Positions 480 to 54,834 of a stretch of DNA of 64,000 bases are shown here, in pieces. The notes under the pieces were generated by a model. The model was not told the origin of the DNA. It was given only the letters and a program-made list of their open reading frames with translations, and ran no database searches. The position numbers and the translations under genes are program-made. Within the stretch, counting starts at the first letter, position 1; every line of letters starts with the position of its first letter. The DNA comes from Chrysomallon squamiferum (Eukaryota; Animalia; Mollusca), in contig CM022667.1 in the NCBI GenBank assembly GCA_012295275.1, positions 13,578,001 to 13,642,000 of the forward strand, written 5' to 3'.

Positions 480-517
<38 letters not shown>

Positions 518-24792: not shown

Positions 24793-25952
24793 GTGCAACA
24801 CAATAATGACATGGATAAAAAATCCTAATTTTGAAAATATTGAGATAACCAAGGCTCTCATATCTTCTGCTGAAAGAATTACATCACGAGGGCATTGTGG
24901 GATACGATGCGCAGATAACTCGTCCTGTGTTTGGTTTTCGTACAACGTGTATGGAACTTGTCGTCTGCATTATTTGAGATTTATGAATTCGAGCAGCTTT
25001 TCAGCTTCACCTGGCTGGACGCACTTTTACCTGAGTGCAGGTAGAAAATTACAGACACACGCACATACAGACAAATATTTTAAAAAATGTACTTAAAATC
25101 ATCAAAACACACACAGACAGTAATAATAATTTAAAAATATATATATTGTAAATATATTTGTAGGATAGAAAAGAAATTTCTAGAACTACTCTTTCAACAG
25201 AAATTAATCCATATATGACTTTACTATAAGTATTATTCTTAATTCTGAAAACAAATTATAATTTTAAAAACTTTTTAGAAATTATTATCATTTCCTGGCA
25301 GGTTCCTGTCCAGTGGAAGATGGGTTTGTTTATCTGGACAATCTGAATCTATGTTTCAAAGTAGTCAGCGATAAGAAAAATTTTACTGAAGCACGTGACG
25401 CCTGCAGTCAGATAGGTTCAAGACTGATTGTACTGGACACAGAAGAGAAAAACACAGCTGTCGGTGACTACATACAAGCAAACATAGGTAGGAATATATA
25501 CATACATATAACTACCACTGCTCATAGACAGTTAGTTAAAAAATAATTAAAAAGAAAGAAAAAAGAAAAAGAAGAAGAAAAAAACGTCTTCATCAGTACC
25601 TACCGTCTTCATCTGTGTGGTCTAGGTAAAATATGCATTAGCTTTATATTGTTTTCATTGTTGTTTTTGTTTTCATTGTTGTTGTTGTTATTGGTATTGT
25701 TATTATTACTATTATTTTTATTATTATTCAGACGCAGAGAACTATTTGTACATCGGACTGACTGACTTGGATACAGAAGACGTGTATGTTTGGGAGAACG
25801 GAGTTCAGGCAGTGTTTTTCAGCTGGGGAGTAAATCAACCTAACGTCGGTATTTCTAACGAAGACTGTGTTATGTTATATTTTCGGGTGAACACATGGCA
25901 TGATTTTGACTGTACTGTAAAAGGAAATTTCATTTGTGAGAAATCAATGTGA
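24793..25952 (+). CDS. PAN-CTL subfamily C copy C1 (exons 2-4 open; probably uses B4 exon 1)
   Basis: Exon 2 is 24793-25040, exon 3 is 25302-25487 and exon 4 is 25732-25952 (QPN, EDC, WHD, all Cys present). A partial duplicate of the exon-2 start with a TAG lies at ~24648-24720. Confidence 0.85.
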
Positions 25953-26962
25953 TTTTTCTGTAGTGTCAAAATATATATATCTGATTCTGTTACAAATGAA
26001 ACTGACAAAATCAGTTCATTCATTTTATCATTTTACTCTCTAATGAATCAGTAATTTATAAATTCTGACGATAATGCTGATTATTGTGTTAATCCTGATA
26101 TTCAGATGACGTTGATTAAACTATTGTAGTTGCCTGAAACAGAGTTATGCTTTCCTTCATCATGTTTTGCTCGCCTCACTGTCAATAGCATTTCATAAAT
26201 GAATCATTTAGAGCAGGAATCGCTGTAGTTCAAAAGCAACAATTAATTAATTAAATTTTAAATAGGTCTCCTCTACTAAAAGCATGTCAACAGAACGAAA
26301 GCAAGAAATTTAACTAAACTGCATGCAAAGCAGTCAGTTACTTCTTGTCAGTCTAAATGTAACCATGTCTTTAGTAGCGAATAATCTGAATTTGTTTCAG
26401 TCATTTTATAATTGAGTAATACATCTAATCAGGGAAAGTTACTCAGAATTGAAATAAATCTAATTAAACTTCTAGTAGGAAATAAGAATTATATAAAATG
26501 TATTTCTTAAACAGTCATCGGAGAACATTTTGGATTTCCGAGTTAAATTCATTTATGTATCGTCAGAGGTAACGAAAAAAAGTGCAACAACAAGAACAAT
26601 AACAGAAACAAGCAAAGCCTAAAGAAAATTAAATTAAAATAAATAAAGCAGAATCAACCAACATGAAAATAAATACAAACAAAGAAACAAAAAAAAAAAA
26701 AAAAAAAAAAAACCAACAATAACAAAGGAAATAAAACAAAAATGTAATAATTAAGAAATAAATCCTTTAAAAAAATAATAATAAAAATATAAATAAACAA
26801 ATTGTTCAGTGTTTCTGCTTTACTAAAAGCATGTTAATATAAACAAAGCAAGAAACGTAAGTAAATTCCTTGTAACGTAATAAAATTGACTCATACAAAC
26901 ACCCTCGGTTAAAAGAAAAGAATCTCACAACAATAATAGTAACAACAACAACAACGAGAACA

Positions 26963-26995
<33 letters not shown>

Positions 26996-28819
26996 ATAAT
27001 ATAAATAAATAACAACAAAACAAAACAAGGGCTACAAAATAAAAATTATATTAGAAATGTTCTCAGAAGTCCTCTAATGAGATCTTTCTTCTACAACAAT
27101 CATCACAACAGTACAAACAACAACAAGAACAACAACAACTACTACTACAACTGATAGCAATAGTACTAGTACTAATCATACATAGTTAAAGGAAAAATTA
27201 TATTTTCTTATACAAAAGTAAATATATATACAAAAAAAATAGTAAATTTCTGAATTTTCACTAGAAAGAAAACAGAAAAACAACAACAACAAACACGCCA
27301 AAAAAAAAAAAAAAAAGGTTTGTAGAGAGAACTAACAATAAAGGAAGTAAAACAGAAGAATAATAATTAAAAATAAAACTCCTCAAAAAGAACAAACAAA
27401 AACATGAAATAAAATAATAGAATCACAGTTGACTGCTGTCAAACCAAACATACCAAATATCGGTTTACATTGATTCATTGATTTTGTATACATTTACACC
27501 TGTCTCTGAATGATTAAAAATTAAATTTCAAGCATGAACTTTGAATAATTATGACTTGCTCTGTTGTTTATTAAAATATCTGTAGTTATAACAGTACCAT
27601 ATACTATATAAAAAATGTATTGAGTCAACATTATCATTGTCATGGCAAAGAAGCTGTTCTGTTGCAGTTGTTGCTTTTGTTGTCCCTGATGCTGATGTTC
27701 TTTTGGTCGATGTCATTTGCAATCCTGGGGATGTGTTTCGTACATTCATTTATTGATTATCAGTTACAATCAAATGGTCTTGAATGTAGTCATCAAAAAT
27801 TAAACTACATTTACTGGAGTATAAAGCACTTCAATTGGCATTTTAGTCATTACTTCTTCACCATTCTTTGAGTATAATACCACGTTGTATTTCAATTAAG
27901 TTTCTAAGAGTTTTGTTTATTTAGATATTATTAGGACTCATATTTGATACTGATAAGTTTCACGGAGTTTGTGATATATATTACGGTGAACTGCCAGTTA
28001 TAGAAAAGTTAGCAGCTAAAATGAAAATCTTTCTCATCGAAGGAATCTGGGTTTTGGCTGCCGTCTTATGTTGTAAAACTGCAGAAAGGTAGGTGTGAAT
28101 TTGCTGAGAGAGATTTTCTTGGAATTTTCCCATGTTTTATTCTTTTGACGCTACAGTAAGTATAAAAATTGGGTAATCTATCAGTGCTATCTCTGGTTTA
28201 AAAAGTCACATAAAACTGTATAAAAACAATGGTCAAAATGGACTTGTCCTGTAAACTAATACAGGCCGTCTTACGTTTCTCAGATCTTAATAGGTATTCT
28301 TCAAGATGCGTTTATAAATTAATAAGACTTTCTTGGAATTTTCCTCTGATTTCTTGCTTTGACTCCGCAATAAATAAAAAACAAATTGGGTAATCTTAAT
28401 GTACACATCTTCCATTTGCTACGATTTATTTTTGTTTCAATGCTAACTCTGATTTAAAAAGTCACCTAAAACTGTATGAAGAAAATTTCGCTTGAAAAAC
28501 TTTTTTGTTAAATCAATCAATTCTGTATTTTAATTTCACTGTGGCAGTGTACATTGGTTTGCTTATTTTAAATTTGGTAAGGCGGGAAATTCCTTGTTTT
28601 GTTCTTTCTTTCCTTCTTTTGTTTTTAATTTATTATTATTATCTTAGTTTATTTTTGAGAAAGGCTTTCGGCTACAAACAGCGTATTATTAACTTAGAGT
28701 AAAACACGTGTTGTTAAAATCAGAGTATCAATGTATGTTTTGATTCTAAAAATACATGTGCTTTTCGAAGTATATATATATATTTGCTTTCTTTCTTAGT
28801 AGATGTTTTATTATTGTAG

Positions 28820-29183
28820 ATGCAGCCCTCCATCTATCTGGATTAGAAATGTAAATTTTAACGATGTTGATGTAAACGATGGGCTCATAACTTCTCTAGC
28901 TGGATTTACAAGCGCAGAGTTTTGTGGGATACGATGTGCAGATAACTCTGTCTGTAAATCGTTTTCATACAATGTGAGTGGTGTTTGTCGACTCCATTCA
29001 GTGAGATTTTCAAATTACAACAGTTACTCTAAATCACCTGGCTGGAACTACTTCTACCTCAGTGCAGGTAACGTAGGTTTTATTAATTAATTAATTATTT
29101 CTTTGTTTCTTTCTTTCTGTCTGTCTATCTTTAAGAGTTTATGAACTTATTAGTTGCCTACATCTTTATCAAATGTAATTTTC

Positions 29184-29217
<34 letters not shown>

Positions 29218-29597
29218 CAATTAGTTGTTTAGAAGCATTTGTAATGAAGAAATCATTTTCAAATTTTCTATAAGACATTTTGATCGAAAGAAATTAACTG
29301 TTTCATTCTCACAGGTTCATGTCCAGTAGAAGACGGGTTTGTGTACTTGGACGAAGTGCATTTGTGTATGAAGGCTTTTTTGGATAAGAAAACATTTTCT
29401 CAAGCACGTTACGCCTGCAGTCAGACAGGTTCAAGACTGATTGTACTGGACACAGAAGAGAAAAATACGGCTGTTGGTGACTACATCGTTGCACACATAG
29501 GTAAATTCGTTTCCTTCATCATTATCATCATCACTATTATTATTATCGTCGACAATATCGCATGCATTGTTTTCATCACTATCATAATCATCATAAC

Positions 29598-29632
<35 letters not shown>

Positions 29633-29833
29633 TTACTATTATTATTATTATTATTATCATCATCGTCGTGATCCTCACTGATATTATTATTATTTACTAC
29701 TAATTCTACTACATCCACCACCAGCCTCATCCCTACCACTGTTACTATTGATACTGCTACTACAACTACCGATACAACCATGACCACGGCTACTGTTACT
29801 ACTACTACTACTACTACTAACTCTACATCCGTT

Positions 29834-29872
<39 letters not shown>

Positions 29873-29885
29873 CATCATCATCATC

Positions 29886-29931
<46 letters not shown>

Positions 29932-30153
29932 TTAGCCACAGACAACTTTTACATCGGTCTAACAGACGAGAAGGTTGAAAACACGTTTGTCTGGGAGAAT
30001 GGTGAAGCGGTAAAGTTGTCGAGCTGGAACGAAAATGAACCAAGTGATGGTGCCAGAACTGAAGACTGCGTCCTGTTAGTACCAACAGATAAAGTGTGGG
30101 GCGATGTGCCCTGTTCTCGATACGAAAAATACATCTGTGAAAAACTTATGTGA
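28820..30153 (+). CDS. PAN-CTL subfamily A copy A3 (exons 2-4 open; first exon unresolved)
   Basis: Exon 2 is 28820-29067, exon 3 is 29315-29500 and exon 4 is 29936-30153 (EPS, WGD). Splice sites are canonical and there are no stops. Confidence 0.85.
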
Positions 30154-30653: not shown

Positions 30654-33589
30654 TTAATACAAATGTGATTCACATATGTAAAACATAGCTGGATAACTAG
30701 GAATACCAGCCCATTTTTTTATATCGACATCAAACACAGTGCAGTGTTCGTTATTATTTTCATCCCAGTTTGTAAAAGTGGCTTTTTCAACATTCTCCCA
30801 GATTATCTCATCTTTCTTAGTTAGGCCAATATAGAACCAACCTGAATTTAACCCTGTAAAATAAATAATAATAACTACAGTAACACACGTGTTAGTAGAA
30901 ATTGTAGCTGTAGTAGTAATAGTAGGACAAGTAGCAGTAAAGGCAATAGTAGAAGTAACAATATCAGTTGTAGTAGCAGAAATATTAGTTGTAGTAGGAG
31001 TAGTAATATTAATAATATAATGGCAGTAGTATAGATAGCAATACCAGTAACAGCAACAGCAGAAATGATAGCAGTAGTCATAGTAATACTAGTAGTGGTA
31101 ACAGTTGCATTAGCAGTAGTGGTTGCAGTAGCAGTAGAAAGTATAGTAGAAACAGCGCAGTAGTAGTAGAATTCGAATTAGTTGTATCAGCATAATTAGT
31201 CGTAGTAATATTAATCGTAATAGTAGTAGTAGATATAGTAATTGTTCTAACAGTTTCAGTAGAGTTAGTAGTAGTAGCAGCTGTGGCATCAGCAGTAATA
31301 GTATTACTGATTTTGCTACTGGGAGTAGTAGTGGGAAAGTAGTAATAGAAGTAGTAGTTTTAATACTACTAGTAGTGGTGTTAGTAGTAGCAGGAGTGGT
31401 ACAAGTAGTAGTGATAATAACAGTAGTATTAGCAGTTGTATCATATGAAGCAGTAGGAGTAACATGAATAATATTACTAGTAGTAGTAGTAGTAGTAATA
31501 CTTTTACAGGTGTTAATAAACAGTAGCTGCATTAGTAGTAGTGTGATAATAGTAATAGTAGTACAAAAGCATCCACACCAGCAGAATTAGTAGTAGTAAG
31601 AGGAGAAGGAAGGAGGACTGAATGAGAAAATAAAGTAACTGAATGAGTAGTAAATAAAGTAATAATAGTAATAATAGTAATAGCAGCATGTGTAGTAGTA
31701 GGAGTAGCAATGGCTGTACTAACAGTAGTAGTAGTAGTGGTAGCACTAATAACAGTTGAAGTAGTAATAGTAGTAGTAATAGCTGTAGTGGCTGTGGTAA
31801 CATTAGTAGTAATTGTAATGCCAGGTGTAGTGTTAGTGGCAGCAGTAGTGGTAGTAGCAGCCTTTGTAATTGTTGTTGTAGTAATAGGACTGGTAGCATT
31901 CGTGAGAGTAGAAGCAAAACTAGTAAGTAATAACAGTATCAATAATAAATACAGCAGCCCTTGTAGCAACATACATAGCAGTATAACACTGGTAGTTACG
32001 GCAGGAATACTAATAGAGATTAATACTAATACTATTAGTAGAGATTGTGGTAGCAGCAGGAGAAGTAGAAATCGTAGAAGTGGTAATCCTACTAGTATTA
32101 TTAGTAGTAACAGTCGTAGTGGTAATAGAACTGGTAGAAATAGAGCAATTAGCTGTTTGCAGTTCTTGTTCTGCTTCTTTCATTTTTATTTAATTCTTTC
32201 TGCTGTTTCTTTGAAATATTTCTTTCTTTATTACTTTACACAAAACAAAGTAAATAAATAAATAAATAAATAAATAAGAGAAATGAAGAAAGCTGACATA
32301 CCTATGTTTGAAAGGTAGCTCGATAGAATTATATTTTTTTGTTCCGTGTCTAACACGATCAATCTTGACTCCAGTTGGTTGCAAGCATGACTGCATCAAC
32401 AAAGTTTTTATCATCTTCAAACAACTTCAAGCACAGTGTGCCCAAAAAGACGAAACCCTTTTCAGTTGGACAGACATCTTTAAAACGAAACAGCCATAGA
32501 ACAGAAACAATAACACACATACAAACTCATACACGTAAACAAAGAAAAAAAAAGAAATAGTAATTAAAATAATATATTCGTGTTTCTATATAAAAATAAA
32601 ATTCCCATTGTTACGATCTAAAGATAAACTTCATCGTGCGACCTTACAAAGACAAAATTAGACTTTTGTCATAAATAGAGTAGAAAGATAAAGTTCTGAG
32701 TTTTGTGATATAAAGGTAAAATTTCATTATTCTACAATACAAGATAAATTCAAACTTTTATCATACGAAAATAAAATTCTAGAATATTACTATAAACAGA
32801 TAGAATTCATTATACTATCATACAAAGATAACATTCAAACTGTTAGTATATAAAGAAAAATTCTGATCGTAACCACGGAAATACACAAATCAGAAATTTA
32901 CGTTAAACTGTTACCACTGGAAGATAAAATTTAGATTATGGAAAGATCCAGATTCGCCTGATACCTGAAGGAATGTAATAGTGTCTCCAGTTTGCTGTAT
33001 CAGACGTACTGACGTAAGTACCAAATGTCACAGAATAATGGCGACATTTTCCGTTGTCGTAGGCAAACGAAAAACATGCTGGATTCTTGGTGCAGGCAGA
33101 GCCACAGTGCATCATGGTCTTGACGTCAGTGGCTTCGTATATTGTAGCGTTAGCTGCAGTGAAATAATCATATTTTTCTTTCTCAATCCAAATCCATCTT
33201 GTTCCAATGCAGCTTCAATGACAGTTAAAATAAAACTATTTTCATTACTTGTATTAAATAGACATTCAGTAAGATATAATTCAACTGATGACATCAATCT
33301 ATGTATCATTGTAACAATATATCTATCCTTCTCTCCATCCATCCATTCATTTGCCATATCTATCTATGTAATCTGCATCTATCTATCTGTCTATCAAGAG
33401 GTGTGGAAACACACACATACACACACAAACACACTCACATACACGTTACTGATGCATGTATCCAGAGAATTATTCTGTTTCAACATAAATAAAAAGTGTA
33501 CGTATATTTATTTATACATACCTGTCTGCCATTTTAGAACACACGAAGACAGCTGACAACAGCAGAAACTGGAGGAAAGTGTTTTGCAT
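30654..33589 (-). pseudogene. PAN-CTL subfamily B copy B3
   Basis: Exon 1 (33589-33522) and exon 2 (33212-32965) are open. Exon 3 (32477-32302) is 176 nt, a 1-nt deletion. Exon 4 (~30853-30654) is degenerate with internal deletions. Confidence 0.88.
30870..32150. repeat. Long degenerate (TAG/TAA/CAG)n trinucleotide array in B3 intron 3
   Basis: About 1.3 kb of gta/gca/ata triplets, which generate the spurious poly-V/L/T ORFs. Confidence 0.9.
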
Positions 33590-35282
33590 TTTGTCTAAAT
33601 AATGTTTAGTGAAGAAAATGCTGAAGTGAATAAATCGTAATAAAATTCGGTATTTGAGGTTATGTTAAGTAGAACTGTCACCAAGCTGTAACAAGTTGAA
33701 ATGTTTCTATAGTGTATTTAATTTTTAATGTTTTACGGGCTGTTTAACATTCTTACTTCTTCTTTATCATCAAGCGCAACTTATATATATATATAATTTA
33801 TATCTTCATTAACCATATTTACTGTAAAAATAGTAGTTTGTTATGACTGTTTGATAGCTATAGTATTTGTAGTAGTAGTACTGGTTATGATGGTCGTAGT
33901 AGTAGTTGATTTTTTTGGCGTTGCTGTAGTAGACGTTGTACAGCACTAGCAGTAATAAAATAATAAAGATGATGATGATGATTATAATAATAATAATAAT
34001 AATAACAGTAGTAGTAGTAGTCGTAGTATTCATCAACGTATTTGTTCTAGTAGTTTTATAGTACTAGCAATAGTTGTACCAATAATAAAAGTAGTAGCAG
34101 TAGTAGTGTGTTTTTATTATTGTTGTTCTTGGTGATCCCATCTAAAATTAAGCTACTGTCAATTTTAGATAAATGAAAAAGCTGTAGAGACTGGTAGAAG
34201 ATATTTTTTTTGTAAGTTACTGCTTAAGGCGGTTAATGTTTAACATAGAAGTGTGTCAGAAAAGTAGAGTGATTTCTTGAGTCCATTAATTGAACAATAA
34301 TTTATCTTCATTAACCAAATTCACTGTAAAGGTAGTAATTCTGGTTATGATTGGTAGCGGTAGCATTTGTAGTATTGGTTATGATGGCTGTAGTAGTAGT
34401 TGATTTTGCTGGTATTGCTGTAGTAGACGTTATTGTAACAGCAATAATTATAAAACAACAAGAATAATACTAGTAGTAGCAGTCGTAGTAATGGTAATTG
34501 CAGTAGAAATTGTTGTTGTAGCAGTTCAGTGGTTGTAATTGTAGTAGTAATAGTATTAGTAGTTGTTGCTTTAGTAGTAGTAGTGGTTTTAGTAGTAGTA
34601 ATATTAATAGTGTTAGTTGTTGTAAGAGTATCGTTATTTTTGTAGTAGTGTTAGTAGTAGGTGTTCTAATAATATAGTAGTAGGAGCAGTTGATCAAAAT
34701 TGACTGTAGAGTCAAGTGTATACCAAAACTGGTTCTCATTTTTTCATTGATTCGTATGGCTGTTAAAGTAGATGCAGTTGTGAGTTTTCTTATAGCAATT
34801 ATTTTACATTAACTTTTGTTATTCGCTGTCGTTGTCGTGATTATAATAGTAATTATGGGTAACGTGATAGCTAAACTGATTGTTTAAATTTAATTCAAAG
34901 TATTTATTTATTATTATTTTTATTTTTTTATTTTTATTTTTTATTTTTATAGATATCTTTTTTTAAATTCCTTAATTAAAATTACTATAGCCATTATTAC
35001 TTTTCTTGCTGCTGTTCTTCTTCTTCTTCTTAATATTACTATTGTTGTTGTTTCTGTCATTTTGATTGTTTAAAAATATTTCAGTGATCAGAATCAGTAA
35101 ATGTATCATAAAAAATAAAATAAAATAAAATAAAAATCAAGAAATGACTCGATAGCTATTGGTGATAATGAAAATTGATTCTTCATTTTCAAATCGCACA
35201 GATGTATAGATAAAACAAACAAACAAACAAATATATAAATAAATAAAATAATTTATTTAATTTTCTTTATTCAGCAAATATC

Positions 35283-35445
35283 AAGTCAGTTTCTCAATAG
35301 TTTTTCACGCCACATTTTGCTTGTTGGAATTAATATCGCGCAATCTTCCAGGTAGTTATCGGATTCATTGTTGTTTGATTTTTCAAAAAGGACGTTTTCT
35401 CCATTCTCCAAAACAAATTTTGTTTCCACCTTTCCAAAGGTCAAA
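35283..35445 (-). pseudogene. Degenerate orphan CTL exon-4 remnant (F3)
   Basis: Duplicate of 300-460. Confidence 0.75.
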
Positions 35446-36141
35446 CAAGTAACAGCTATGGTATAGTAGTAGTAGTAGTAGTAGTAGTAGTAGGCAAAGG
35501 AAACATTTATGACCTCGTGTTACATATTCCGTTGTAGCTAAGGTTTAATAGAACACAGAAAATTTGAAGGAAAAATCAATAGATGCAGAAAAAGAACTGA
35601 TGTGTGACATGCTGAAATAATAACGTTTTGAGAATGAATCATCCAAAGTGACTAAATATTATTTAATATTCACGGACGACAAGGTTTGTTCCTCTGGGAA
35701 AAATGAAACTTATTTAATGTTTTGTGAGCTTGACCCAATCAATATTGTAATACCTAGGAAGAAGAAGAACAAAACATTACATTTCCATACTGTTAATCGT
35801 AAAACGAACTTTATTGGAGAAAACAAATAGAGCAGTAACAAAGACAACAACAATGACAATAATATTAGATATACAACAAATTTAAAGAAGTATAAATAAT
35901 ATATTTGCACTCAGATATCATAACTACTTCAACACGTACAATAAATATGCCAGGATTTCTGTACAGCTGAAATAAAATAAAAAATGTACAGATATCAATA
36001 ACCAGTTTAACAATATTAACGCAAAACAATATACAGTACATTACAAACAGTAGTTCTTTAAATCAATATCTGTCTCTGTTCATTTACTAATAAAATATTT
36101 AACACGAAAACTGATATTCTCATATTCTGATATAATAATTA

Positions 36142-36221
<80 letters not shown>

Positions 36222-37587
36222 GCATCTACCGTACACACTCACTTATAATTCGATCTAATTTTATATCGATCGGCCTTGATTTTAAACACTGAAATGTAAA
36301 CAACAGACAGACTCGTTCGATGGAGGTTGATATGAATTTTAGAATATTTTTTTTATTCTGATTCATAAATTTTGAGAGATCTTAGATTTGTTTATCTTCT
36401 TTGCTTTGTTTGTTTTTTTCTTAAGTAAGAAGTGTTATTTGTTTACAGTACAAGAATCTTACAACATTTCACAGAAGTAAAAATTGCCTAATTAGTTAAA
36501 TGCAAATAACAAAAATGTTTAACAATAACAACAGCAACAACAATACTAAATGGTGGTATATTCAATAATAATAACAATGATTATGATAATGATATTAATA
36601 ATTATTAATAATAACAACAATAACAACAAAATAATTTCGAATTAATAAAGACACAAATTTATAGAAAAAAAATGGATATACAGAAATGTCATGTGCAATT
36701 GATTTTGATTAGTTAAAACTGTAGATTACTACTGGAAACGACTTTTTGCTACACATTTCTGTGTGTGACACTTGCTGTTAATTTAGTCACTTACAAGCAA
36801 AAAACCATCACAGAACTGATTAGTACTTGAGTCTGACGAGAATTCGCAAAAATACGTGAAAACATCCGACGCAATCATTTTGTGCACAGCGTAGCCAGGT
36901 TTTAATACAGGACTCTCTTCCATCATTCAAAAAGATTTTATGTTAACAGTCTATATGTATATATGTATATATAGATATGTCTTTACAATTGATCTAAACA
37001 AAAATTCAGCACGGATTAAAATATTATTAGGCCAAGTGGGAACATCACAATAGGCTTTTAGACTAAATGGGTAATTGAGAAAGTTCCTTTCAAACTTTGT
37101 AGGTAATTATAAGAACATTATAAGCAACGTGTGTAAACTGCCAGTCTCAAGAAGATGGAACACAGTGTACAGGCAGTAAATGAATATATGAATGTTTTAC
37201 TACATCTGGAGAAGCTATCTCAAACTGTAAGTAATATAATGGTATAGATTTTACAGTTTCTTAATATACTAAACTATAACTCCGGGTGTTGTTACATCCT
37301 TTACTCTGTGGTAACTGTACTCTAGTTGGTGCATTTCTCTGAAATATTCTGTCTGTTACACGATAGAAACACAAATAACAAAACTTCTTTACGTTGAGAT
37401 GAATAACAACATTACGTGTTAAACTGAGACAAGAAATCAATGAGCACGTTTACGTGTTGTGTGTGTTTATTTCTTTCCTGTTGTTCTTTAATTGGTTGTT
37501 GTGTTTTGCCATGTTTTGTTTTTTGGTTTTTTTTTTTCATCAATGTCTTTTTGAAATTCGTTAAATTTGTATCTGTTCTGGTGACGA

Positions 37588-37809
37588 TCACACAAGTTTT
37601 TCACAAATGTATTTTTCGCGTCGAGAACATTGCACGTCGCCCCACACTTTATCTGTTGGTACTAACAGGACGCAGTCTTCAGTTCTGTAACCATCACTTG
37701 GTTCATTTTCGTTCCAGCTCGTGAACTTTGCCGCTTCACCATTCTCCCAGACAAACGTGTTTTCAACCTTCTCGTCTGTTAGACCGATGTAAAAGCTGTC
37801 TGTGGCTAA

Positions 37810-37875
<66 letters not shown>

Positions 37876-38091
37876 AATAAATAAAATTAAAACCGGTATA
37901 GTAATAGTAGTAGTTGTAGTAGTAAAATATATAGTAGTGGTAATAGTAGCAGTGGTCATGGTTGTATCGGTAGTTGTAGTAGCAGTATCAATAGTAACAG
38001 TGGTAGGGATGAGGCTTGTGGTGGATGTAGCAGTATTAGTAGTTTTCTTCTAGTAAATAATAATAATATTAGTGAGGATCACGATGATTAT

Positions 38092-38144
<53 letters not shown>

Positions 38145-38541
38145 TAATAATAATAATAATAATAACGATTATGATAGTGATGAAAACTGCAACGGATATT
38201 GACGACGATAATAATAATAGTGATGATGATAATGATGAAGGAAACGAATTTACATATGTGTGCAACGATGTAGTCACCAACAGCCGTATTTTTCTCTTCT
38301 GAGTCCAGTACAATCAGTCTTGAACCTATCTGACTGCAGACGTCACGTGCTTGAGAAAATGTTTTCTTATCCACAAAAGCCTTCATACACAGATGCACTT
38401 CGTCCAAGAACACAAACCCGTCTTCTACTGGACATGAACCTGTGAGAATAAAACAGTTAATTTCTTTCTTTCACATGTCTTATAGAAAATTTGAAAATGA
38501 TTTCTTCATTACAAATAACCTGCTTCTAAACAACTAACTGG

Positions 38542-38603
<62 letters not shown>

Positions 38604-38857
38604 CATCATCATCATGATCATCATCATTATTATTTTGAATATAGAAAATTACATTTGATAAAGATGTAGCCAACCTATTTATTATTCGTAGTAATAGTAG
38701 TAGTTGTTATGGTAGCAGTAGTTGTATTTGAGTAGTAGTAGAAGTAGCTGTAGTTGCAGGAATAGTAGAACTGTTTCAAAAAGTTTTGATGGAATATAGA
38801 AAACGAATTATCGAAAAATTCTATTGATAATGATTTCACATTATAAAATTAATTTGC

Positions 38858-38893
<36 letters not shown>

Positions 38894-39221
38894 ACAAGGA
38901 AAATTAAACTAATCTAAAATCAAGTAAACCAAAGTAAGTAAGTAAATAAATAATTAAATAAAACCTACGTTACCTGCATTCAGGTAGAAGTAGTTCCAGC
39001 CAGGTGATTTGGAGTAACTGTTGTAATTTGAAAATCTCAAGGAATGGAGTCGACAAACACCACGCACATTGTATGAAAACGATCTACAGACAGGGTTATC
39101 TGCACATCGTATCCCACAAAACTCTGCGCTTGTAAATCCAGCTAGAGTAGTTATGAGCCCATCGTTTACATCGACATCGTTAAAATTTACATTTCTAATC
39201 CAGACAGATGGAGGGCTGCAC
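37588..39221 (-). CDS. PAN-CTL subfamily A copy A4 (exons 2-4 open; nearly identical to A1)
   Basis: Exon 2 is 39221-38974, exon 3 is 38439-38254 and exon 4 is 37805-37588 (EPS, WGD). Confidence 0.85.
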
Positions 39222-39300
39222 CTACAGTAATAAAACATCTAGTGAAATATACACACATACATACATACAGAAGTACGTACATACATCCATTCATCCACCC

Positions 39301-41966: not shown

Positions 41967-42010
<44 letters not shown>

Positions 42011-42838
42011 CAATCGTAAGTAACTGTAACTACAATCAGATCCGCGCTTTTTATTGTTGACGCCATTTTTTTAACTCCATGGCGTTGTTGTAAAAGCGCT
42101 GGCATTTGGTAATTATGAACGTTCTTCACAACATCTTGCTCTGATTAGCACGTTAATTTTTTTCAATTTCAGTTTCAGTAATTAAGCAGCTGAGTCAGGC
42201 AGGGAAACAAATGTTTTGAATGACATTGTCTTTACGGACGAGTATGGTAAGCTATTGTCCATTCTTATTTTGATAGGGTAATGTGCAAATTAACCTCTTT
42301 AGGAACATTTAATATAAGTAAAACTTTAATTATTTAATCTGTCCTCCGTGCATTTTTTTATTTTGTCTTGGTTCCCCGTCTGACCTTACTCGTATCACTT
42401 ATGTTTGTATTATTATCAAGTCATCTCTATATTGTAATTAAATATTTAACTCGTATTGTGTTTATTTATCTAGTGGACCGCTAAATATTGATTATATAGA
42501 TTGTTGTCAATTTAGCGTTTACATTCCTTGATAGGTTGCCATTAAAGCACCTTGTTACCCTAGACTGAGCATTAATAAAATATCCAAGATGTTTAATGAT
42601 GTGGGCCTCGTGACAATATATATATAAAAAAACTAACGATTGTTGATTAAAACAAAATAGATGTCAAACATGTTAAGCCTTCAGTTGTGCATTAAAAATT
42701 AAATACACCGTAGCAACGTTTCATGTTAAAGCTGCAAATCGATGTTTGGGGATTTTGACTTAAGATAAGCTCAAACATTGATATTTATTACGACCTGTTC
42801 ACTTCGTCGTTTTCTTCACTAAAATTTATTCATACAAA

Positions 42839-44896
42839 ATGCAAAACACTTTCATCCAGTTTCTGTTGTTGTCAGCTGTTTTCGTGTGTTCTAAAATGGC
42901 AGACAGGCATGTATAAATATACGTACTCTTTTTATTTTATATTGAAACTGAATAACAGTGTGGATGTATGCATAAGTTAGATAGACAAATAGATATATCT
43001 TGTAAATGAGCGGATGAACTGATAGAATGATAAATAGATTAACGTCATCAACTGAATTATATCTTACTAAATGTCACTATTTAATACAAGTAATGAAAAT
43101 AGTTCAATTTTACTGTCATTGAAGCTGCATTGGCACCAGATGGATTTGGATTCAGAAAGAAAAATATGATTATTTCACTGCAGCTAACGGTATAATTTAC
43201 GAAGCCACTGACGTCAAGACCATGATGCACTGTGGCTCTGCCTGCACCAAGAATCCTGAATGCCTTTCGTTTGCCTACGACAACGGAAAATGTCGCCATT
43301 ATTCTGTGAGGGTTGGTACTTACGTCAGTACGTCTGACACGGCAAACTGGAAGCACTATTACATTCCTTCAGGTAGCAGGCTAAATTTAACCTTTGTATT
43401 ATAATAATAATAATAATCTGACTTTTCAGTGGTAACATTCTGAATTTTTTATTTTGCTTGGCAACAGTCTCATTTGAATCGTTTTCTCTATATACTAGCT
43501 GTTTGAATTTGATCTTTGAATAACATTATGTTCAAGTTCATCTTTTTATGGCAATAGCTAAAATGTTATCTTTGTATGATAGTGAAATGAATTTTATGTT
43601 TCTATCGTAACAGTATGTATTTTACATTATATTGTAATCGTCTGATTTTTATTTTTATTTTTTTTAAATTGTTTGGGGATAACGGCGGTAACGATGTGTG
43701 CATAATTATGTATATAAAATTATTATTGTAGTGACTATTATATAGTTGTTTTTGTTTCATAGATTTCTGTCCGACTGATGAGGGTTTCGTGTTTTTGGGA
43801 ACACTGTGCTTCAAGTTGTCTGAAGATCGTAAAACATTTGCTGAGGCACGTGTTGCTTGCGACCAGCTGGGATCAAGACTGATCGTGTTAGACACGGAAG
43901 AAAAAAACAGAATTCTGTCGCGCTACCTTTGAAACATAGGTGTGTCTACTGTTTTCTTATTTCCCTTTTTATTTATTTATTTATTTGTTTATGTGTTTGT
44001 TTCATTTGATCAGTAGTATTACTATTACTACTACAACTACTGCGACAACAATAACTGCCTCTGCTACTGCTACTACTACTACTTTTTCTGTCACTTCTGT
44101 TGCTTCTACTACAATTAGTATTACTACTACTACCTTTACTGCTACAATTGTTACTGCTATAAATACGAAAACTACTACCACTGGTATTACTGCAGTTATA
44201 TCTCTTTATAATCACTATTGGTATCTCGCCAAAATGTCTGACTTCCATTTAAATATATACAAATTCACCTCCCAATACTGTCCCCATGCTATGCACTTAT
44301 GACTTTGGACCACATACTCTAACGATATCAGATAGCAGTATGACCCGATAAACCTACATCAGCAGATTTTGTCTGTTATCAAAAATAAATCTCAAGCAAA
44401 CACAGTTTATTTCTGCCTCAAATTTCATGAACAAAAACTATACTTTCCCTGGCAGTTATTCACTTTGGAAAGCTCTGCAGAGAATGATTTTTAGTAACTA
44501 CTCTCACTACAACAATACTACTTACTAGCTCTGCTACTGTTACTGTTAACACTGCTTCCACTTCTACTTGTTTTCCTGCATCTGTCTCTGCTATTGCTGC
44601 TTCATCGCTATTGTTACTCCTATACCACCGCTACTACTGCTATTACTATTATTACATTTACATTCATTTGTTTTACAGGGTCAAATCTCGAAAAGTTTTA
44701 TATCGGATTAACTGATGAAGTTGAGGAGAAAACGTATGTGTGGGAGAATGGTGAAAAAGCAATTTATACAAACTGGAATGAAAATGAACCTAATAATTTC
44801 GATTTTGAAGGCTGCACTATATTTTATTCTGGTTATAGCAAATGGGCAGATGTTCCTTGTCAAAGACATTTCAAATACATATGTGAAAACCTCTAA
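42839..44896 (+). pseudogene. PAN-CTL subfamily B copy B2; GC donor after exon 1 and premature TGA in exon 3
   Basis: Exon 1 is 42839-42906 (ag|gcatgt). Exon 2 is 43125-43372. Exon 3 is 43763-43939 with TCA>TGA at 43930-43932. Exon 4 is 44679-44896, open, with EPN and WAD. Confidence 0.85.
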
Positions 44897-45574
44897 ATTG
44901 ATCGTAAGAACCTGACGAGCAACAAACAAAATAATATTAAAATAGAAAAATAAAAAATCATATCTTCAAGCATATTTTCTTCGACTTATATGGTAATTGT
45001 AATGCAGGTCAGTTAAATCAATAAACAGAAAAACAATTCTTCTTTAGTTGTATTTTTATTGTTCAGTTTCTGTTTGTATTTGTCACATTCGCTTATTTTT
45101 GTATAGTTTGCTTGCAGTCTTAGTAATGAATTCTGAACAGTTTCGGTTTGTTGTGGTGTACTCAACAATGCTGAGTGAATCTGACTGTTTAAATTTAATA
45201 CAGTTTTTATTTGATTTTGTTAATTTTTATTTTCATCGATCATACTTTTTAATCCCTTCAATGTTGTTTAATTCTTCTAGGAAATAATCATCATTTAATA
45301 TCTGTACTACATCTCATTTGTTTATTGCTTTTCTTACTGCTGTTGTTCTTGCTGTCATTTTAATTATTCAAAACATTGCGGTTGTAAGCATCCGTAAAAA
45401 AAAAAAAAAATGAAAGAATCAAGAAATGAATGAATGACAGGTTGGTGATAATGATAATTACATTTTTTTTTTTTTTTTTTTTGACGCATGGACGTATAGA
45501 TAAAACAAACAAATATATAAATAAGTAAATAAATTTAATTTGTTTTTTGTTTATTCAACAAATATCATGTGACT

Positions 45575-46008
45575 TTAACAACGGTTTTTCACAAATCTAT
45601 ATTTACTGAATGTATACAGTTAATGTCACACCACATTTTGCTTGCTGGAATTAATATCGCTCAATCTTCCAGGTAGTTATCGGATTCATTGTTGTCCCAT
45701 TTTTCAAAATGGACGTTTTGTCCATTCTCTCAAACAAAATTGTTTTCCATCTTTTCTTACTTTTAGATTTGTATAAAAACTCATAGTACCTAAAACGTAT
45801 GACAAATAACAGTGTGTAGCAGTAGTAGTAGCAGTAGTTTACTAGTGGTAGTGATTGGAGGGGTATTGCTGTGCAGTAGATGAAGTAGTAGTTGTTTATA
45901 AATGTATAAGTTCCTGCCTATGTTTGTTTTGATGTAGTGTTTTTCTCTTCTGTGTCCAGTACAATCAGTCTTGAGCCTATCTGACTGCAGGTGTCACGCG
46001 CTTCAGAA
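45575..46008 (-). pseudogene. Degenerate CTL exon 3/4 remnant (E2), inverted copy of E1
   Basis: Reverse-complement match to 10864-11301 with an additional deletion. Confidence 0.8.
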
Positions 46009-46334
46009 ACTGTTTTGTATAGTCAAATTTTCACTCTTGTATATTGTCCACCATTCTCCCACATATACTTGACAGAAACGTGTCAATATAATGAAAGTGT
46101 TTAGTTATTCTTAATTGTATTTCTGTCCTGTCATAATACACCATTTAAAGTATCAATATAATGTATCTGTTCGTCCAGTTAATATATTAAACATTATTAA
46201 TATTTTATTTCTTCAACACCTCAATATGTTACCCGTGTTCTATTTGTTTAACAGCTCACTACGTTGTACATGTTATATTTCTTGAAATCATCAGTAGCCC
46301 TGTTATTGTAATATGGGTTTTGAAGCCATGTCCA

Positions 46335-47195: not shown

Positions 47196-48419
47196 ATTAG
47201 GTTATTGTTATACTACTTACTACTCCTACTACTACAATTGCTGCTACTACTACTACTACACCACTGCCACTACTTCTAATTACGTTATTGTTATAGTACT
47301 TACTACTCCTACTACTTGTGTTAGTGTTATCGCTACTACTACTGGTTCTGCTATTTACATCACTGCTTCTGTTACCGCCACTACTAATTACGTTACTGTT
47401 ACTAATATTTATAATGCTTACTTAATTGTTTGTACTTCTATTATTCACGCTACTACTACGAACGTTAATCATAAAGCAAAGATTAAGAAGAAAACTGAAC
47501 TTTCAAAAGAAAAAAAATCAACAAATCCAGAAATATAACTGATGTGTGACATGTTGAAATAATTATTTTCTTGATAATAATCGTTTCTAGTGACAAAATA
47601 TTATTAAATATTCACGGACGACAAGGATTGTTCCTCTGGGAAAATGAAATTTATTTAATGTTTTGTCAGCTTCACACAATCAATATTGTAATAACTAGGA
47701 AGAAGAAGACCAAAAATTGTTTTATCCTTATCATTTTGATACTGCCAATCGTAAGATGAATTTTATTAATAAAATAATAATAATAATAATGACATAAAAA
47801 AAAAATAGAGAGAGAATTAAATTATTTACGCAAATCAGTGTACTATATATTACAAATAATTGTTCCTTAAATCAGTATCTTTCTCTATTCATTTACGAAT
47901 AAAATAATCAACATCTAAACTGATATTCACAACATTAATTTAAAAAAAGAAGAAAAACAATCTCTCTAATGTTATGTCGATTGGCCTGAATTTTAAAGGT
48001 ACCTATACGTGTTTACAAGTCGATGTATTTTTTAGAACCTTTTTTGTTCTTATTTTGGCTCGAATTCATAAATACAGAGAGCTTTTAGGTTGGTTTGTTG
48101 TTTTTCTCTTTAATTATATGATGTATATATACGTATGTTTATATGTATGTATAATAATAAATTCTAAATAGTAGTATACCAGATAATAATAATAATAATA
48201 ATAACAATAACAACAACAAAAACAACAACAACTACAACAAAACAAGATGACCTCCTCCTACAGAAAATGATTCAGAATTAATAAAAATTTATGGAAAAAA
48301 AATGCCTGTATAGAAATGTCAAGGGCAACTGATTTGGATTAGTTAAAACTGTAGATTACTATTAGAAACGAATGCGAACTCTTTATACACGTTTCTGTGT
48401 CTGACGTTTGGTGTTAGTA

Positions 48420-49920
48420 CAGATTATTCGTAATACCTTATAATCCCATTTAATGTCAGGAAAATACAGCTAGCTGTGTGGTAGTGATAAATGATTGCAG
48501 AGGAGGCAATGGCCAAAGGTAATTAACTCTAGTTTACTAGCCTTTACAATAAAACCGAGATACAAAAAAAACAGTCTTTTCGATTCAAGCGTCATTTCAA
48601 CCACGAGGGGAAAACATTTACTTGCTTTTTTCATCCATTGCCATCCAGCTTTTTTTCAATTAGAAAAACGGCTGATATCGTCTGAAAAAAGAAAGAAAAT
48701 GAAAGTGTCTGCCCAGAAAAATGTAGGCAGATCGAAGCGGAGGATCAACCAACCTTGTCGTTGTTTGACAACCGAGCCGCTTCAACAGCGAGGACGAAGA
48801 CAAAGGGCCATGGATGATTCCACGATTGTTTCAAAATGGAACGACAGGTGGGAAACGGTCAGTCGGATACTGGCAATTTTAACTTGAGTACGTAGATATT
48901 TTGCCTCCGTCATTAATATTCGGCACATTTGACAAGATAGGGCTCAATGTACCGCAAAAATGTCGGCAAACAAATCTGGATGCGGAACATGTTGACGTGT
49001 GTAAGTCCAGACAGGAAATGGAAGCTAGTCAGGGTGGCGTAGGCGACCTCGTATTGAAGGAGGGAAAACTAGTGGTCAAAAACAGGGAAAAGGGAGGTTG
49101 TTTTACATCAGTCCACCCGTGGACGTCGGCTGTCATGATTTTTATGTGTGTTACTGGACGCTCAACAAATCTTGACTTTTTTTAACGGATATTAGGATGT
49201 TAGCCGACAGAAGCAGTTCATGGCCATTTTATGATGAACAATTCCGAATAAAATACGTCAGACACACGGAAAATTAATTGTGGAGAGTTAACAGACAATG
49301 AGCTCTGGTTGCTGTCCATGTCAGGAATAGGGGGAACTGGAAAAGCTGGAGCACATGACAAAGGTTCTGCTATGTCCACTATGGCCAGTTCCTGTGGATC
49401 ACTTAGAACATTTCACTGCTTTCTTGTCATTACAGCAATTAGCCCCACCTACTATAAAAACGTATATTAGTGGGATCAGTAGATGGCAAACATTAAGGGC
49501 GATGGGGTTTCTACAAGGTATTCTTATTTCATAATTCCTTGAAGGATGATGGAGGGGACATGCATGAGTACACACGTGCAACCCCATCATTTTCTCAATT
49601 TTGGAGAAAATTGTGGCTCCACTATCTATTATTTCTTTATTTCAGTTTGAAGCCGATTTATTTGAAACCCTTTTCAAAATGGCGGTCTTTGCATTTTTAC
49701 AGGTGGGAGAAATAATAGCCAAAACACCAGCGGACAATTCGAACAGAACATTTGGGGATATTGACTTCAAGATTAGAACTGAAGAAAAACGACCCTACCA
49801 GCTGAAACTTCTCATAAGGAAATCGAACAATGATCAAAGAGGTAATGGCTGTCTACTGTATCTCCACAGTTTCGCAGATGAAAACGTCTGAAACTGTTGT
49901 AGTTATTCAGAGAGATTAAT
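48420..49920 (+). mobile_element. Internally deleted DIRS/Ngaro-type tyrosine-recombinase retrotransposon remnant (gag-like + YR, no RT/RNase H)
   Basis: Gag-like segment: WTSA..IF / IRMLADRSSSWPFYDEQFR..ELW (~49115-49325). YR-like segment: WPVPVDHLEHFTAFLSLQQLAPPTIKTYISGIS, LFKMAVFAFLQVGEI (cf. AFFGFLRxGE, catalytic R>Q) and LLIRKSNNDQRGNG (cf. IRxSKTDQxGxG). Many stops; boundaries approximate. Confidence 0.8.
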
Positions 49921-50352
49921 ATTTGTATATATCGGCCTTATTTTTGCGATTTCTCGTGAAACTCAGATGCTAATCAGTTGTGATGCCAAGGTTCCCAGTC
50001 TGCAACTGCCCTAATTAAAGCATCTCTTACGATTTTTGCATTGTTTATGTTGACATGTTTTTAGTAGAGCAGAAACACTGAAACTTTAATTAATTAATTT
50101 TAGCTCTTGAACTACGACTATTCCTGCTCTGAATTTTTAATTCATGAATTGCTCTTGACGACGAAACATTTTGATGAAGGAAGGAATAACTCTGTTTGAG
50201 ACATCTATTTTATTTTAATCAACCAGTTCATAACTATCAGAATAATCATTGTTGATTAATTACTGATTCATGAAAGATTTAAAAAAATGAATGAACTGAT
50301 TTTGTTAGTTTCATTGTAACAGTAGCTGATTTGCATTCAATATTATAGAAAA

Positions 50353-50573
50353 TCACATTGGTTTCTCACAAATGTAATTTTCTTTTTTAAAACAGAAAAT
50401 ATCATGCCATGTGTTTAAAGGAAAATATAACGTAACACTGTCCTGGTTACCGTTACTACTGTGAGGTTCATTGGTTCCCGAATTGAAAAACATTGCCTGA
50501 TTTCCGTCCTCCCAAACATACACGCCTTCTGTAACAACATCAGTCGGTCCGATGTATAAATATTCATCTGTGT
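50353..50573 (-). pseudogene. Orphan CTL exon 4, subfamily D copy D1
   Basis: Open 221-nt exon with acceptor: YLYIGPTD..NSGTNEPH..QDSV..WHD..C..YICEKPM. It carries L>P, W>S and C>S lesions, and no upstream exon 3 was seen. Confidence 0.8.
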
Positions 50574-50959
50574 CTGAATAACAATAACAGAATTAATAAA
50601 GATACCAATGACAACAAAAACAGCGACAACCACAACAACAGCAATACGGATTGAATATTGATTATCTTTCCAGTACAAGCAAATTCGAATAGAGAAGCCC
50701 ACGATTTGAGACAATGTGTCTGGTTTTGTATTAATGAGAATGTTACAAATACCTGATGACAAACAACATTAATTTTTCAACTCTGGCATACTATGCCATT
50801 TTGCTTTTTTGTATTACTGACAAAAAATCAATGAAATATTTTATAATGCAAATAAATTAAATATATGTGTCCTTATATAACAAAGACGATTAAATAAACT
50901 GTAAAATCATAATTAGTAACAAGTTGTAATCAATTGTAGACATTTCAGTAGAACTTTGT

Positions 50960-51440: not shown

Positions 51441-52199
51441 GTTATAAATGAATTAATGAGTGAAATTTATTAATGCTCGAAACATGCTTAAAAAAATGCA
51501 TACCTCTCGAACTCATAAAAAGTTTTATTTTATATATATTTCATATATGTTCGTTTAAAACTATACGAGTAACTCAGTGTTTATGTTGTCAAATGACTGA
51601 AAGGAATAACAGTTTCTCCGTACATTACGAAGTAAAAATTACAATGAAATTTGTTGAGATACGAATTCGTAAATTATTTCATATCAGTGATATCAAGATA
51701 TCTTGATCTGCAACTGGAAATAATTAAGTTAACAGCTAAAAATGAGAACCTTTCTCATCAAAGGAATCTGGGTTTTGGATGTCCTGTTCTATTGTAAAAC
51801 TGAAGAAAAGTATTCATGAATTTGTTGAGAGAGAGAGAGATAGAGAAAGAGAGAGAGAGAGAGATAGAGAGAGAGAGATAGTGTTGCTACATGCATTATT
51901 ATTGTCATCATCATCATCATCACAAATGATAATTTTCAAAATCTAGTTATTAAATTTGTAATATTGCTGTGCAAATCAAGCTCTTGTTATTAGGTTTTTG
52001 CTTAGTATATTGATTATGTTTTCGTTCTTTTGTTCCAATGTTGTATTTTTCTTCAGAAAAATCTAGGAGTAAAAGTGTGGTTAAAATTGGGATATGAGCC
52101 TCTGTTTTGAGTGTAAAAGTAGATACATATTTATATTAAGAGGTAAGTAGAAAATATGTTTGGAACAGCACACACACACACACACAGAGATATTAACCA

Positions 52200-53261: not shown

Positions 53262-53484
53262 ATGCACTACTCACCATTTATTTTGTTGGTAGCATTTGTA
53301 ATCTGTAGCCACGGTAACGAGAGGTATGTAATATCTGAGTTTATATGTTGTTAACTATATGTGAGGACAGAGATAAAATTTACAACAAAGATATTGCAAT
53401 AGGAGAAATGTGTCGTTATAAAATCAAATCAACTTTTTATTGATTGATTGATTTTAATTTTATTAAAAAAATAATAATAATAAC

Positions 53485-53520
<36 letters not shown>

Positions 53521-53584
53521 TAATAATTTAATAACATTTTTAAGATAAAATTATTATTTCTATTATTATTATTATTATCATTGA

Positions 53585-53632
<48 letters not shown>

Positions 53633-54834
53633 CATCATCATCATCATCATCATCCTCATCACAGATGCAAAAAGACAACGACGTGGATTAAAAATCCTAG
53701 TTTTAAGAATGTTGATATAACCAAGGCTCTCATATCTTCTGCTGAAAGAATAACATCACAGGCGTATTGTGGGATACGATGCTTACATAATTCTTCCTGT
53801 GTTTGGTTTTCGTACAACGTGTATGGAACTTGTCGTCTGCATTATTTGAGATTTATGAATCCAACAAGCTTTTCACTTTCACCTGGCTGGACGCACTTTT
53901 ACCTTAGTGCAGGTACAAACACACACACGCACACACACACAAACACACGCACACATACACATAAAAAATACCTTAAATTCATTAAACACACACACACACA
54001 CAGACAATATTAATAATAAGAAAACAAAAACGTATTATTGTAAATATATTTGTAGGATTGTAAAGAAATTTATAGAACTATTCTTGTAACAAAAATTAGT
54101 CGATATATGACATTACTGTAAGGATTATTCTTAATTCTGAAAACGAATTACTATTTTAAAACTATAAAATTATTACAGGTTCCTGTCCAGTGGAAGATGG
54201 GTTTGTTTATCTGGACAAACTGAATCTATGTTTCAAAGTATTCACCGATCAGAAAAATTTTTCTGAAGCACGTGACGCCTGCAGTCAGATAGGTTCAAGA
54301 CTGATTTCACTGGACACGGAAGAGAAAAACACAGCTGTTGGTAACTACATAGCAGCAAACTTAGGTAGGAACATAAATATTGATATACAACTACTACTAC
54401 ACTATAATCAACTATTTGATTTACTTTGACAAAAAAAACTTCGGTAATAAATACGGTATTTTTTTACCAGTTGTAAGTAAATGCATTTTCAATTAATCAT
54501 TATTATTATTATTGTTATTATTATTATTGTTGTTGTTGTTGTTGTTGTTGTTTTTTTTCGTTGTCGATGTTTTTATTGTCGGAATTTTTATTATTTCTGT
54601 TATTATTATTCAGTCACAAATCTGTTTTTATACATCGGACTGACTGATGAAGTTACAGAAGACGTGTATGTTTGGCAGAACGGAGTTCAGGCAGTGTTTT
54701 TCAGCTGGGCACCCGGTGAACCTCACAGTAATAATCTGAACGAGGACTTTGTTATGTTACGTTTACAATGGAACACATGGCATGATATGACCGGTTCTAC
54801 AATAGGAGATTACATTTGTGAGAAACCAATGTGA
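53262..54834 (+). CDS. Complete secreted PAN-CTL protein, subfamily C copy C2 (238 aa predicted)
   Basis: Exon 1 is 53262-53323 (MHYSPFILLVAFVICSHGNE, ag|gtatgt). Exon 2 is 53665-53912, exon 3 is 54179-54364 and exon 4 is 54614-54834 (EPH, WHD). The 717-nt spliced frame is open. Confidence 0.9.

Follow-up and report, generated by a model that had tools for sequence, protein, structure and literature searches.

How did two copies of a lectin gene come to differ so strongly in some short blocks of one exon and hardly at all in the sequence between them? The DNA analysed here, a window of 64,000 nucleotides from the mollusc Chrysomallon squamiferum (GenBank assembly GCA_012295275.1, contig CM022667.1, positions 13,578,001 to 13,642,000, forward strand), is a tandem cluster of four-exon genes, in which a first exon resembling a signal peptide is followed by one PAN exon and by two exons encoding a C-type lectin domain (CTLD). 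Two of its copies, designated C1 and C2, pose this question in exon 4, for which the original prediction invoked either strong diversifying selection or a targeted process reminiscent of the complementarity-determining regions (CDRs) of antibodies. Gene structure, the presence of at least 12 copies, a block-wise divergence confined to exon 4 and the stability of the blocks across samples are directly observed. We consider it probable that C1 and C2 are inherited paralogs and that diversifying selection has driven their predicted ligand faces apart, the framework likely being patched by gene conversion.

A codon table bears out what had been predicted for exon 4 of C1 and C2 with respect to coordinates, reading frame, absence of indels and the count of 31 nonsynonymous to 3 synonymous codons. 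Among the 72 whole codons 30 carry a replacement and 3 a silent difference, and the 31st replacement is due to the codon split over the exon 3/exon 4 junction, which differs as well (Asp versus Val). The framework blocks named in the prediction are identical even at silent sites, the longest identical run comprising 33 nt. As evidence, the raw ratio is nevertheless weak because about four fifths of the sites are replacement sites and silent changes are hidden in multiply hit codons. With divergence set to that of the 3' flank, 5000 neutral simulation runs yield a mean of 31.2 replacement to 6.8 silent codons, and the Nei-Gojobori method gives a nonsynonymous divergence (dN) of 0.30 and a synonymous divergence (dS) of 0.24, a ratio of 1.3. 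Taken alone, the ratio of 31:3 is near neutral expectation and not significant, and this headline statistic was overstated. Regarding the predicted peak of the excess in exon 4, the counts for exon 2 (16:6) and exon 3 (9:2) hold, but their contrast to exon 4 is not significant (p = 0.13 and p = 0.59, respectively).

What exceeds chance in this exon is the clustering of the differences and not their replacement-to-silent ratio. Within three blocks, which were picked after the data had been seen, 33 of 60 bases differ between C1 and C2, compared with 19 of 156 elsewhere in the exon. The spread of the differences is uneven according to a codon permutation (p = 0.0097); codons with two or three changes number 14 where 10.5 are expected, and triple hits 5 where 1 is expected.

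Both versions of exon 4 are recognised by the Pfam Lectin_C profile (43.6 bits for C1 and 28.7 bits for C2, cut-off 22.6 bits). The architecture of a signal peptide (recognised by eye in the exon 1 sequence), one PAN domain (PAN_1, 24.5 bits, cut-off 21.4) and one CTLD within about 240 amino acids is present in a 238-aa model. The CTLD fold was seen for the homolog P0002 of the snail Gigantopelta aegis rather than for C1 or C2 themselves: its model reaches a predicted local distance difference test (pLDDT) value of 78, and its top Foldseek matches are all C-type carbohydrate-recognition domains (CRDs; E ~1e-10). That the variable blocks surround Ca2+ site 2, as had been proposed, is consistent with the Pfam and PDB matches and with passages of the review PMC5877582, which describe two site-2 motifs and a wide variation of these motifs among molluscs. 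Since the blocks flank both motifs described there, their structural placement is reasonable, the clustering of the variable codons on one surface being read from the alignment and not from measured distances. In C1 the site-2 motifs are QPN..E..WHD and in C2 to C5 EPH..E/Q..WHD, compared with the canonical EPN or QPD plus WND; within the C subfamily His thus replaces one or both Asn ligands of the site. In the numbering of mannose-binding protein A (MBP-A), codons 35, 37, 43, 56 and 57 presumably correspond to E185, N187, E193, N205 and D206, while codons 39 and 58 are those which we take to match the specificity residues H189 and I207.

The four conserved cysteines of the CTLD are present in C1, C4, C5 and the B copies, whereas C3 has lost one of them and C2 both inner ones. 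P0011, one of the ten complete Gigantopelta paralogs, likewise lacks both inner cysteines and, like C2, has Phe in place of the first. As C2 nests among cysteine-bearing copies, the losses in C2 and P0011 are likely independent, and the paired loss suggests that C2 is a working variant and not a product of decay.

To what extent selection is needed to explain the blocks was addressed by codon site models in an implementation of our own, with branch lengths fixed to scale in the 10-copy, subset and simulation tests. B4, whose exon 4 is identical to that of B1, was left out, as were A3 and degraded exons near 11090 and 21900, which are not cleanly alignable; the 10-copy test further excludes codons 71-72 and, for the A and B copies, codon 1, and the controls on exons 2 and 3 exclude the A copies. 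For the five C copies, model M8 versus M8a yields twice the log-likelihood difference (2dL) of 27-29 under three codon-frequency models, and AT bias is therefore covered. Once codon rate variation and multi-base mutations are allowed for, M2a versus M1a drops to 6.2-14.3 for these copies (p = 0.04-0.0008). With ten copies the corresponding 2dL values are 32.1, 11.0, 11.5 and 7.75 (p = 1e-7, 0.004, 0.003 and 0.02) for models without or with codon rate variation and multi-base changes, the strictest being that of 7.75, and 11-14% of the codons fall into a class with a dN/dS of 4-6; recombination was left unpartitioned, also in the strictest model with its p of 0.02. Sequences simulated under true selection score 2.1-17.7 in the strictest test (18 runs), and the observed 7.75 is hence typical of selection at this sample size. 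A signal is absent from exons 2 and 3 (2dL 1.1 and 2.3) but present in exon 4 of the same copies (16.3 and 24.1). When C1 and C2 are omitted, the plain test on exon 4 still returns a 2dL of 20.5 and flags codons 40, 49 and 59. In the 10-copy test each of the four model variants picks out codon 59 (posterior 1.0), and codons 2 and 40 are picked out by three; within block 1, codons 33, 38, 40 and 41 are flagged by site models. Codons 2, 3 and 12 of exon 4 (25734-25742 and 25767-25772), which lie outside the three blocks, are also among the fastest sites.

A test on sequences which had no part in defining the blocks is provided by A1 and A2, a held-out pair for which the blocks were fixed beforehand from C1 and C2. 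In these blocks 12 of 46 replacement sites differ, compared with 52 of 1052 non-coding sites (p = 4e-6) and with 5 of 126 silent sites (p = 8e-5), both genes now carrying a stop. Using the 3' flank as a clock, block dN amounts to 2.9 times the flank divergence and in the held-out copies C3 to C5 to 1.9 times (p = 0.03-0.04). The block columns also vary among 11 Gigantopelta paralogs, which fits selection as well as the drift considered below.

Several results weigh against diversifying selection. In the neutral simulation described above a silent share of at most 3/33 has a probability of 0.077, and exon 4 as a whole has diverged between C1 and C2 to the same degree as the 3' flank (52 of 216 versus 71 of 316 bases, p = 0.68). 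Block dN is not significantly higher than dS of the same blocks (2.9 versus 1.9 relative to the flank, p = 0.24; for C3 to C5 1.9 versus 2.3), and the pair B1/B3 points in the same direction as A1/A2 without reaching significance (p = 0.25). The alignments are small (70-72 codons of exon 4) and several of the copies included in the site models, among them A1 and A2, are pseudogenes. The plain site test is strongly anti-conservative here: in null simulations with rate variation and multi-base mutation it exceeds 5.99 in 30 of 35 runs and reaches 32 in one of them. Under the strict model all four exon-4 subsets tried lose significance (p = 0.06-0.18). The predicted diversifying selection at the ligand face is supported, though less strongly than the raw count would imply, with p ~1e-7 from plain site models and a weaker p of 0.02-0.04 from those with rate variation and multi-base mutations.

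An explanation free of adaptation would have unconstrained loops drift, with multi-base mutations and a gene conversion restricted to the framework, perhaps also reaching the flank, mimicking acceleration in a cluster that is decaying. Besides the equal divergence of exon and flank just mentioned, it can draw on the silent rate, which relative to the flank is raised in the blocks (1.9-2.3 times) and lowered in the framework (0.2-0.5 times; the values are 1.9 and 0.44 where block dN is 2.9 times the flank), and on adjacent differences, which are about as common in the flanks (37 of 71) as in the exon (32 of 52). Most copies in the window are broken, and the same columns vary among distant paralogs, as those of any loop would (identity 0.25 versus 0.52 among 11 Gigantopelta paralogs). 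What speaks against drift is the A1/A2 pair, whose blocks lie 3-6 fold above silent and non-coding divergence with about one silent block change, the 10-copy test, in which a p of 0.02 persists under the strictest model, the lack of signal in exons 2 and 3, which share the mutational context, and the intactness of C2, whose two cysteine losses are a matched pair. On balance we regard a purely non-adaptive origin as possible but rather unlikely.

Gene conversion or drift may nonetheless contribute, since silent sites in the blocks are raised as well. Within codons encoding identical amino acids in C1 and C2, 11 of 101 silent sites differ, compared with 71 of 316 sites in the flank (p = 0.01), and the pairwise homoplasy index (PHI) test for recombination gives p ~0.01 at two of three window sizes. 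The identical 33-nt tract is possibly a gene-conversion tract. According to the consulted sections of PMC3924837, selection under gene conversion yields local peaks of divergence, with the major histocompatibility complex (MHC) and plant R-gene clusters as examples. A conversion which homogenises the framework while selected patches resist would be expected to leave the pattern found here; a non-adaptive mix could also produce the same.

The other process originally envisaged, a targeted diversifier which rewrites the blocks as in antibody CDRs, whether a diversity-generating retroelement or a somatic process (hypermutation or gene conversion), bears on whether the differences are inherited. 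The block-like pattern and the raised silent rate within the blocks would suit it, as would the pseudogene exons nearby, which are possible donors; moreover, the literature names the C-type lectin fold as the scaffold on which diversity-generating retroelements usually act. Yet in the main C1 contigs of four of four other runs the blocks are nearly unchanged, while C2 is identical over 54680-54838 in a contig of run X1 and shows three differences over 54680-54987 in X7; this comparison is one of assembled contigs, which drop rare variants, so that low-level somatic variation could escape it. The two coding differences listed for C1 are both replacements within blocks, I40V in all four runs (25851) and R51W in three of them (25884), and are too few for a test (chance ~0.15, estimated by hand). 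Contig ends in the other samples hold further loop and beta3-beta4 variants which are absent from the window. These too could be cited in favour of a diversifier; they also indicate that the lectin family is larger than the window. In one class of contigs a C1-like loop is followed by a block resembling that of C4, which is a lead for module shuffling but not proof. Over the framework, summed contig depth exceeds that of the loop by a factor of 10-25, and although depth is not a measure of copy number, this contrast hints at many more paralogs.

Nor do the bases that change point to a dedicated mutator. The rates of change by source base are similar (A 0.62, C 0.91, G 0.71, T 0.75), by which an adenine- or cytosine-specific spectrum is rejected, and no adenine enrichment appears in 20 template-variant pairings. 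No reverse transcriptase was recognised by eye among the 21 open reading frames (ORFs) of at least 120 aa in the window, and no Rfam family matches it. A diversity-generating retroelement was accordingly discarded as a candidate: adenine-specific changes, a template repeat and a reverse transcriptase were not found within the window. Because the blocks are stable across samples, base bias is lacking and no ORF resembles a reverse transcriptase, the diversity appears to be inherited and to lie between paralogs; targeted or CDR-like somatic diversification thus finds no support, and we hold it to be very improbable. The best reading is that of a lectin cluster with birth-and-death evolution, shaped by ordinary diversifying selection and gene conversion, and no antibody-like mechanism is seen.

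The same contigs speak to the suspicion that C1 and C2 differ merely by assembly or sequencing errors or are two haplotypes of one gene. Microsatellites abound in the window, which also has one gap of undetermined bases (N) and contains recent near-identical duplications, and base 25851 of C1, which differs from all four other runs, may be an error. Both versions of exon 4, however, are found nearly letter-perfect in contigs of independent runs, the flanks of C1 and C2 differ by 22%, and the coding comparison is free of indels. This explanation is largely refuted, and we attach next to no likelihood to it.

The features of the cluster are compiled in Table 1. At least 12 full or partial lectin-gene copies, many of them broken, occur in the 64 kb and fall into three subfamilies (A, B and C), with recent segmental duplications and inversions. 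Intact with GT..AG introns are C2 (238 aa) as well as B1, B3 and B4 (239 aa each); C3, C4, B2, A1, A2, A3 and a fragment at 23922-24500 are broken, and C5 continues past the window end. Upstream of C1 no C-type exon 1 is found, that of C2 being the single copy in the window. The region in front of C1 (23922-25040) holds instead an A-type exon 1, a truncated A-type exon 2 and a partial duplicate of C1 exon 2 (24649-24720). Spliced to C1, the A-type exon 1 at 23922 would keep the reading frame and give 240 aa; C1 is possibly a chimeric gene with an A-type exon 1, or else a headless copy.

Table 1. Lectin-gene copies and exon 4 features of the cluster (positions within the window).
Feature	Position	Strand	Observation
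C1 exon 2 (PAN domain)	24793-25040	+	GT..AG introns, stop-free
C1 exon 3 (first half of lectin domain)	25302-25487	+	GT..AG introns, stop-free
C1 exon 4	25732-25952	+	Pfam Lectin_C E 5e-11; AG acceptor; open frame
33-nt tract identical in C1 and C2	25795-25827; C2 54677-54709	+	Run test p = 0.002 pairwise, ~0.02 after 10 pairs
Variable block 1, codons 32-41, long loop with QPN/EPH motif	25827-25856; C2 54709-54738	+	Codon table
Variable block 2, codons 49-52, beta3-beta4 turn	25878-25889; C2 54760-54771	+	Codon 51 also varies between samples
Variable block 3, codons 58-63, after W-H-D	25905-25922; C2 54787-54804	+	Contains codon 59, the fast site with the most robust signal
C2, intact four-exon gene, 238 aa	53262-54834	+	GT..AG introns; no internal stop; Pfam PAN_1 and Lectin_C
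C2 exon 1, signal-peptide-like	53262-53323	+	
C2 exon 2, PAN	53665-53912	+	
C2 exons 3 and 4, lectin	54179-54364, 54614-54834	+	
C2 codon 45, inner-disulfide Cys absent	54748-54750	+	Cys to Phe
C2 codon 60, inner-disulfide Cys absent	54793-54795	+	Cys to Gly
C3, orphan exon 4	50353-50573	-	Framework damage L>P, W>S, C>S; no upstream exon 2/3 match
C4, exons 3-4 only	61409-62051	-	Without exon 2; exon 3 donor one base short
C5 exon 4	63748-63968	-	Remainder past window end
B1, intact 239-aa subfamily B paralog	2561-4701	-	
B2, broken paralog	18393-19598	+	Exon 2 truncated; exon 4 with 1-base deletion
B3, intact 239-aa paralog	28021-30153	+	
B4, intact, near-identical duplicate of B1	37588-39733	-	
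A1, subfamily A	42839-44899	+	Exon 3 stop
A2, subfamily A	11812-13897	-	Exon 3 stop; variable-block pattern recurs in A1/A2
A3, broken subfamily A paralog	30654-33589	-	Exon 3 frameshift; divergent exon 4

Segmental duplications of 97% identity (1-7855 versus 34985-42901) and inverted ones of about 91% (11466-16328 versus 40470-45244) both carry whole lectin genes, with the N gap (7856-8055) at one end. More degraded remnants of lectin exons 1, 3 or 4 are scattered at 10857-11300, 21676-22080, 45881-46016 and 51718-51834. A repeat of about 2.3 kb and higher GC content, present in two to three copies about 90% alike (8057-9392, 47776-50644 and 59431-61700) with a 130-aa ORF as its only one, adjoins the remnants C3 and C4 and is probably a decayed transposon. 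At 57754-58318 a 54-bp unit is tandemly repeated 10.3 times, leaving 189 codons open in one frame; next to the array lies a piece (58326-58394) of the sequence upstream of C2.

The closest proteins are those of Gigantopelta aegis in eight of eight matches, with 52-68% identity over exon 3 (P0001-P0004, P0008, P0011, P0145 and P0146, automatically named "macrophage mannose receptor 1-like" or "perlucin-like"). They share length (215-244 aa), domain order and variable columns with the genes described here but mostly carry W-N-D plus E/Q-P-N, whereas the C subfamily carries W-H-D plus mostly E-P-H. A selection analysis of these proteins was not found in the literature, nor was a description of the PAN plus C-type lectin family in open-access main texts, although supplements could list such genes; the word "lectin" does not occur in the main text of PMC7142155, and PMC514892 offers no more than general statements. 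Genes from Mytilus, Haliotis and Lottia combine the same domain pair, PAN/Apple and C-type lectin, at 21-30% identity. This pair is also shared by gene model 41 of Biomphalaria glabrata, in the consulted parts of PMC13712769 a candidate in a pathogen-interaction region, whose function is only predicted, as here. No homologs of C2 exon 4 were found among longer proteins. Metagenome matches at 16 loci (28-42% identity) are all distant lectins and were not used.

Compared with MBP-A and other Ca2+-dependent C-type CRDs, sequence and fold match and the blocks flank the site-2 motifs, but His stands for Asn ligands, C2 is devoid of the inner disulfide and PAN replaces the collagen stalk of MBP-A. 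With antibody CDRs and diversity-generating retroelements the cluster shares the layout of framework and hypervariable segments on a binding scaffold; here, however, the variation lies between inherited copies, the changes are unbiased as to base, and neither a template repeat nor a reverse transcriptase was found. Duplicated recognition proteins that diverge at the binding site, accompanied by pseudogenes and footprints of conversion, are likewise described in the sections consulted for conger eel galectins, whose accelerated evolution reaches a dN/dS of 2.6 (PMC3269628), and for MHC and plant R-gene clusters (PMC3924837). Those systems differ from ours in fold and taxon, and the evidence here is weaker, the whole-exon dN/dS being 1.3.

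Under diversifying selection with gene conversion, copies of these predicted secreted PAN plus C-type lectin genes would be born by segmental duplication and inversion. Replacements next to Ca2+ site 2, that is in the long loop, the beta3-beta4 turn and the residues after W-H-D, would be favoured for altering the ligand of each protein, most likely a microbial glycan. Short conversion tracts would homogenise the conserved framework while the selected patches resist, giving rise to divergence peaks which include silent sites, and many copies would later die as pseudogenes. A bolder and, in our estimation, doubtful extension of this scheme assumes a repertoire of the MHC type, made up of secreted lectins and encoded in the germline of a vent-snail lineage. 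In it, conversion would shuffle three binding-face modules among tens of copies and pseudogene exons, and repeated disulfide loss and histidine swaps in some members would create new glycan or metal specificities, possibly used in choosing or policing symbionts.

That tandemly arranged recognition genes evolve fast at their binding surfaces is an established observation, and the mechanism is not new. The value of the locus lies in a little-described PAN plus C-type lectin family, in which codons 40, 41, 49 and 59 are mapped as candidates for specificity, and in the repeated loss of a normally conserved disulfide. The relatives nearest to this family belong to a symbiotic vent snail; the consulted parts of PMC7895826 count C-type lectins among the pattern-recognition receptors of peltospirid snails and discuss them for symbiont recognition, while those of PMC11871041 report C-type lectin domains in the peltospirid shell matrix, and for the proteins of this family immune and biomineral roles are both possible.

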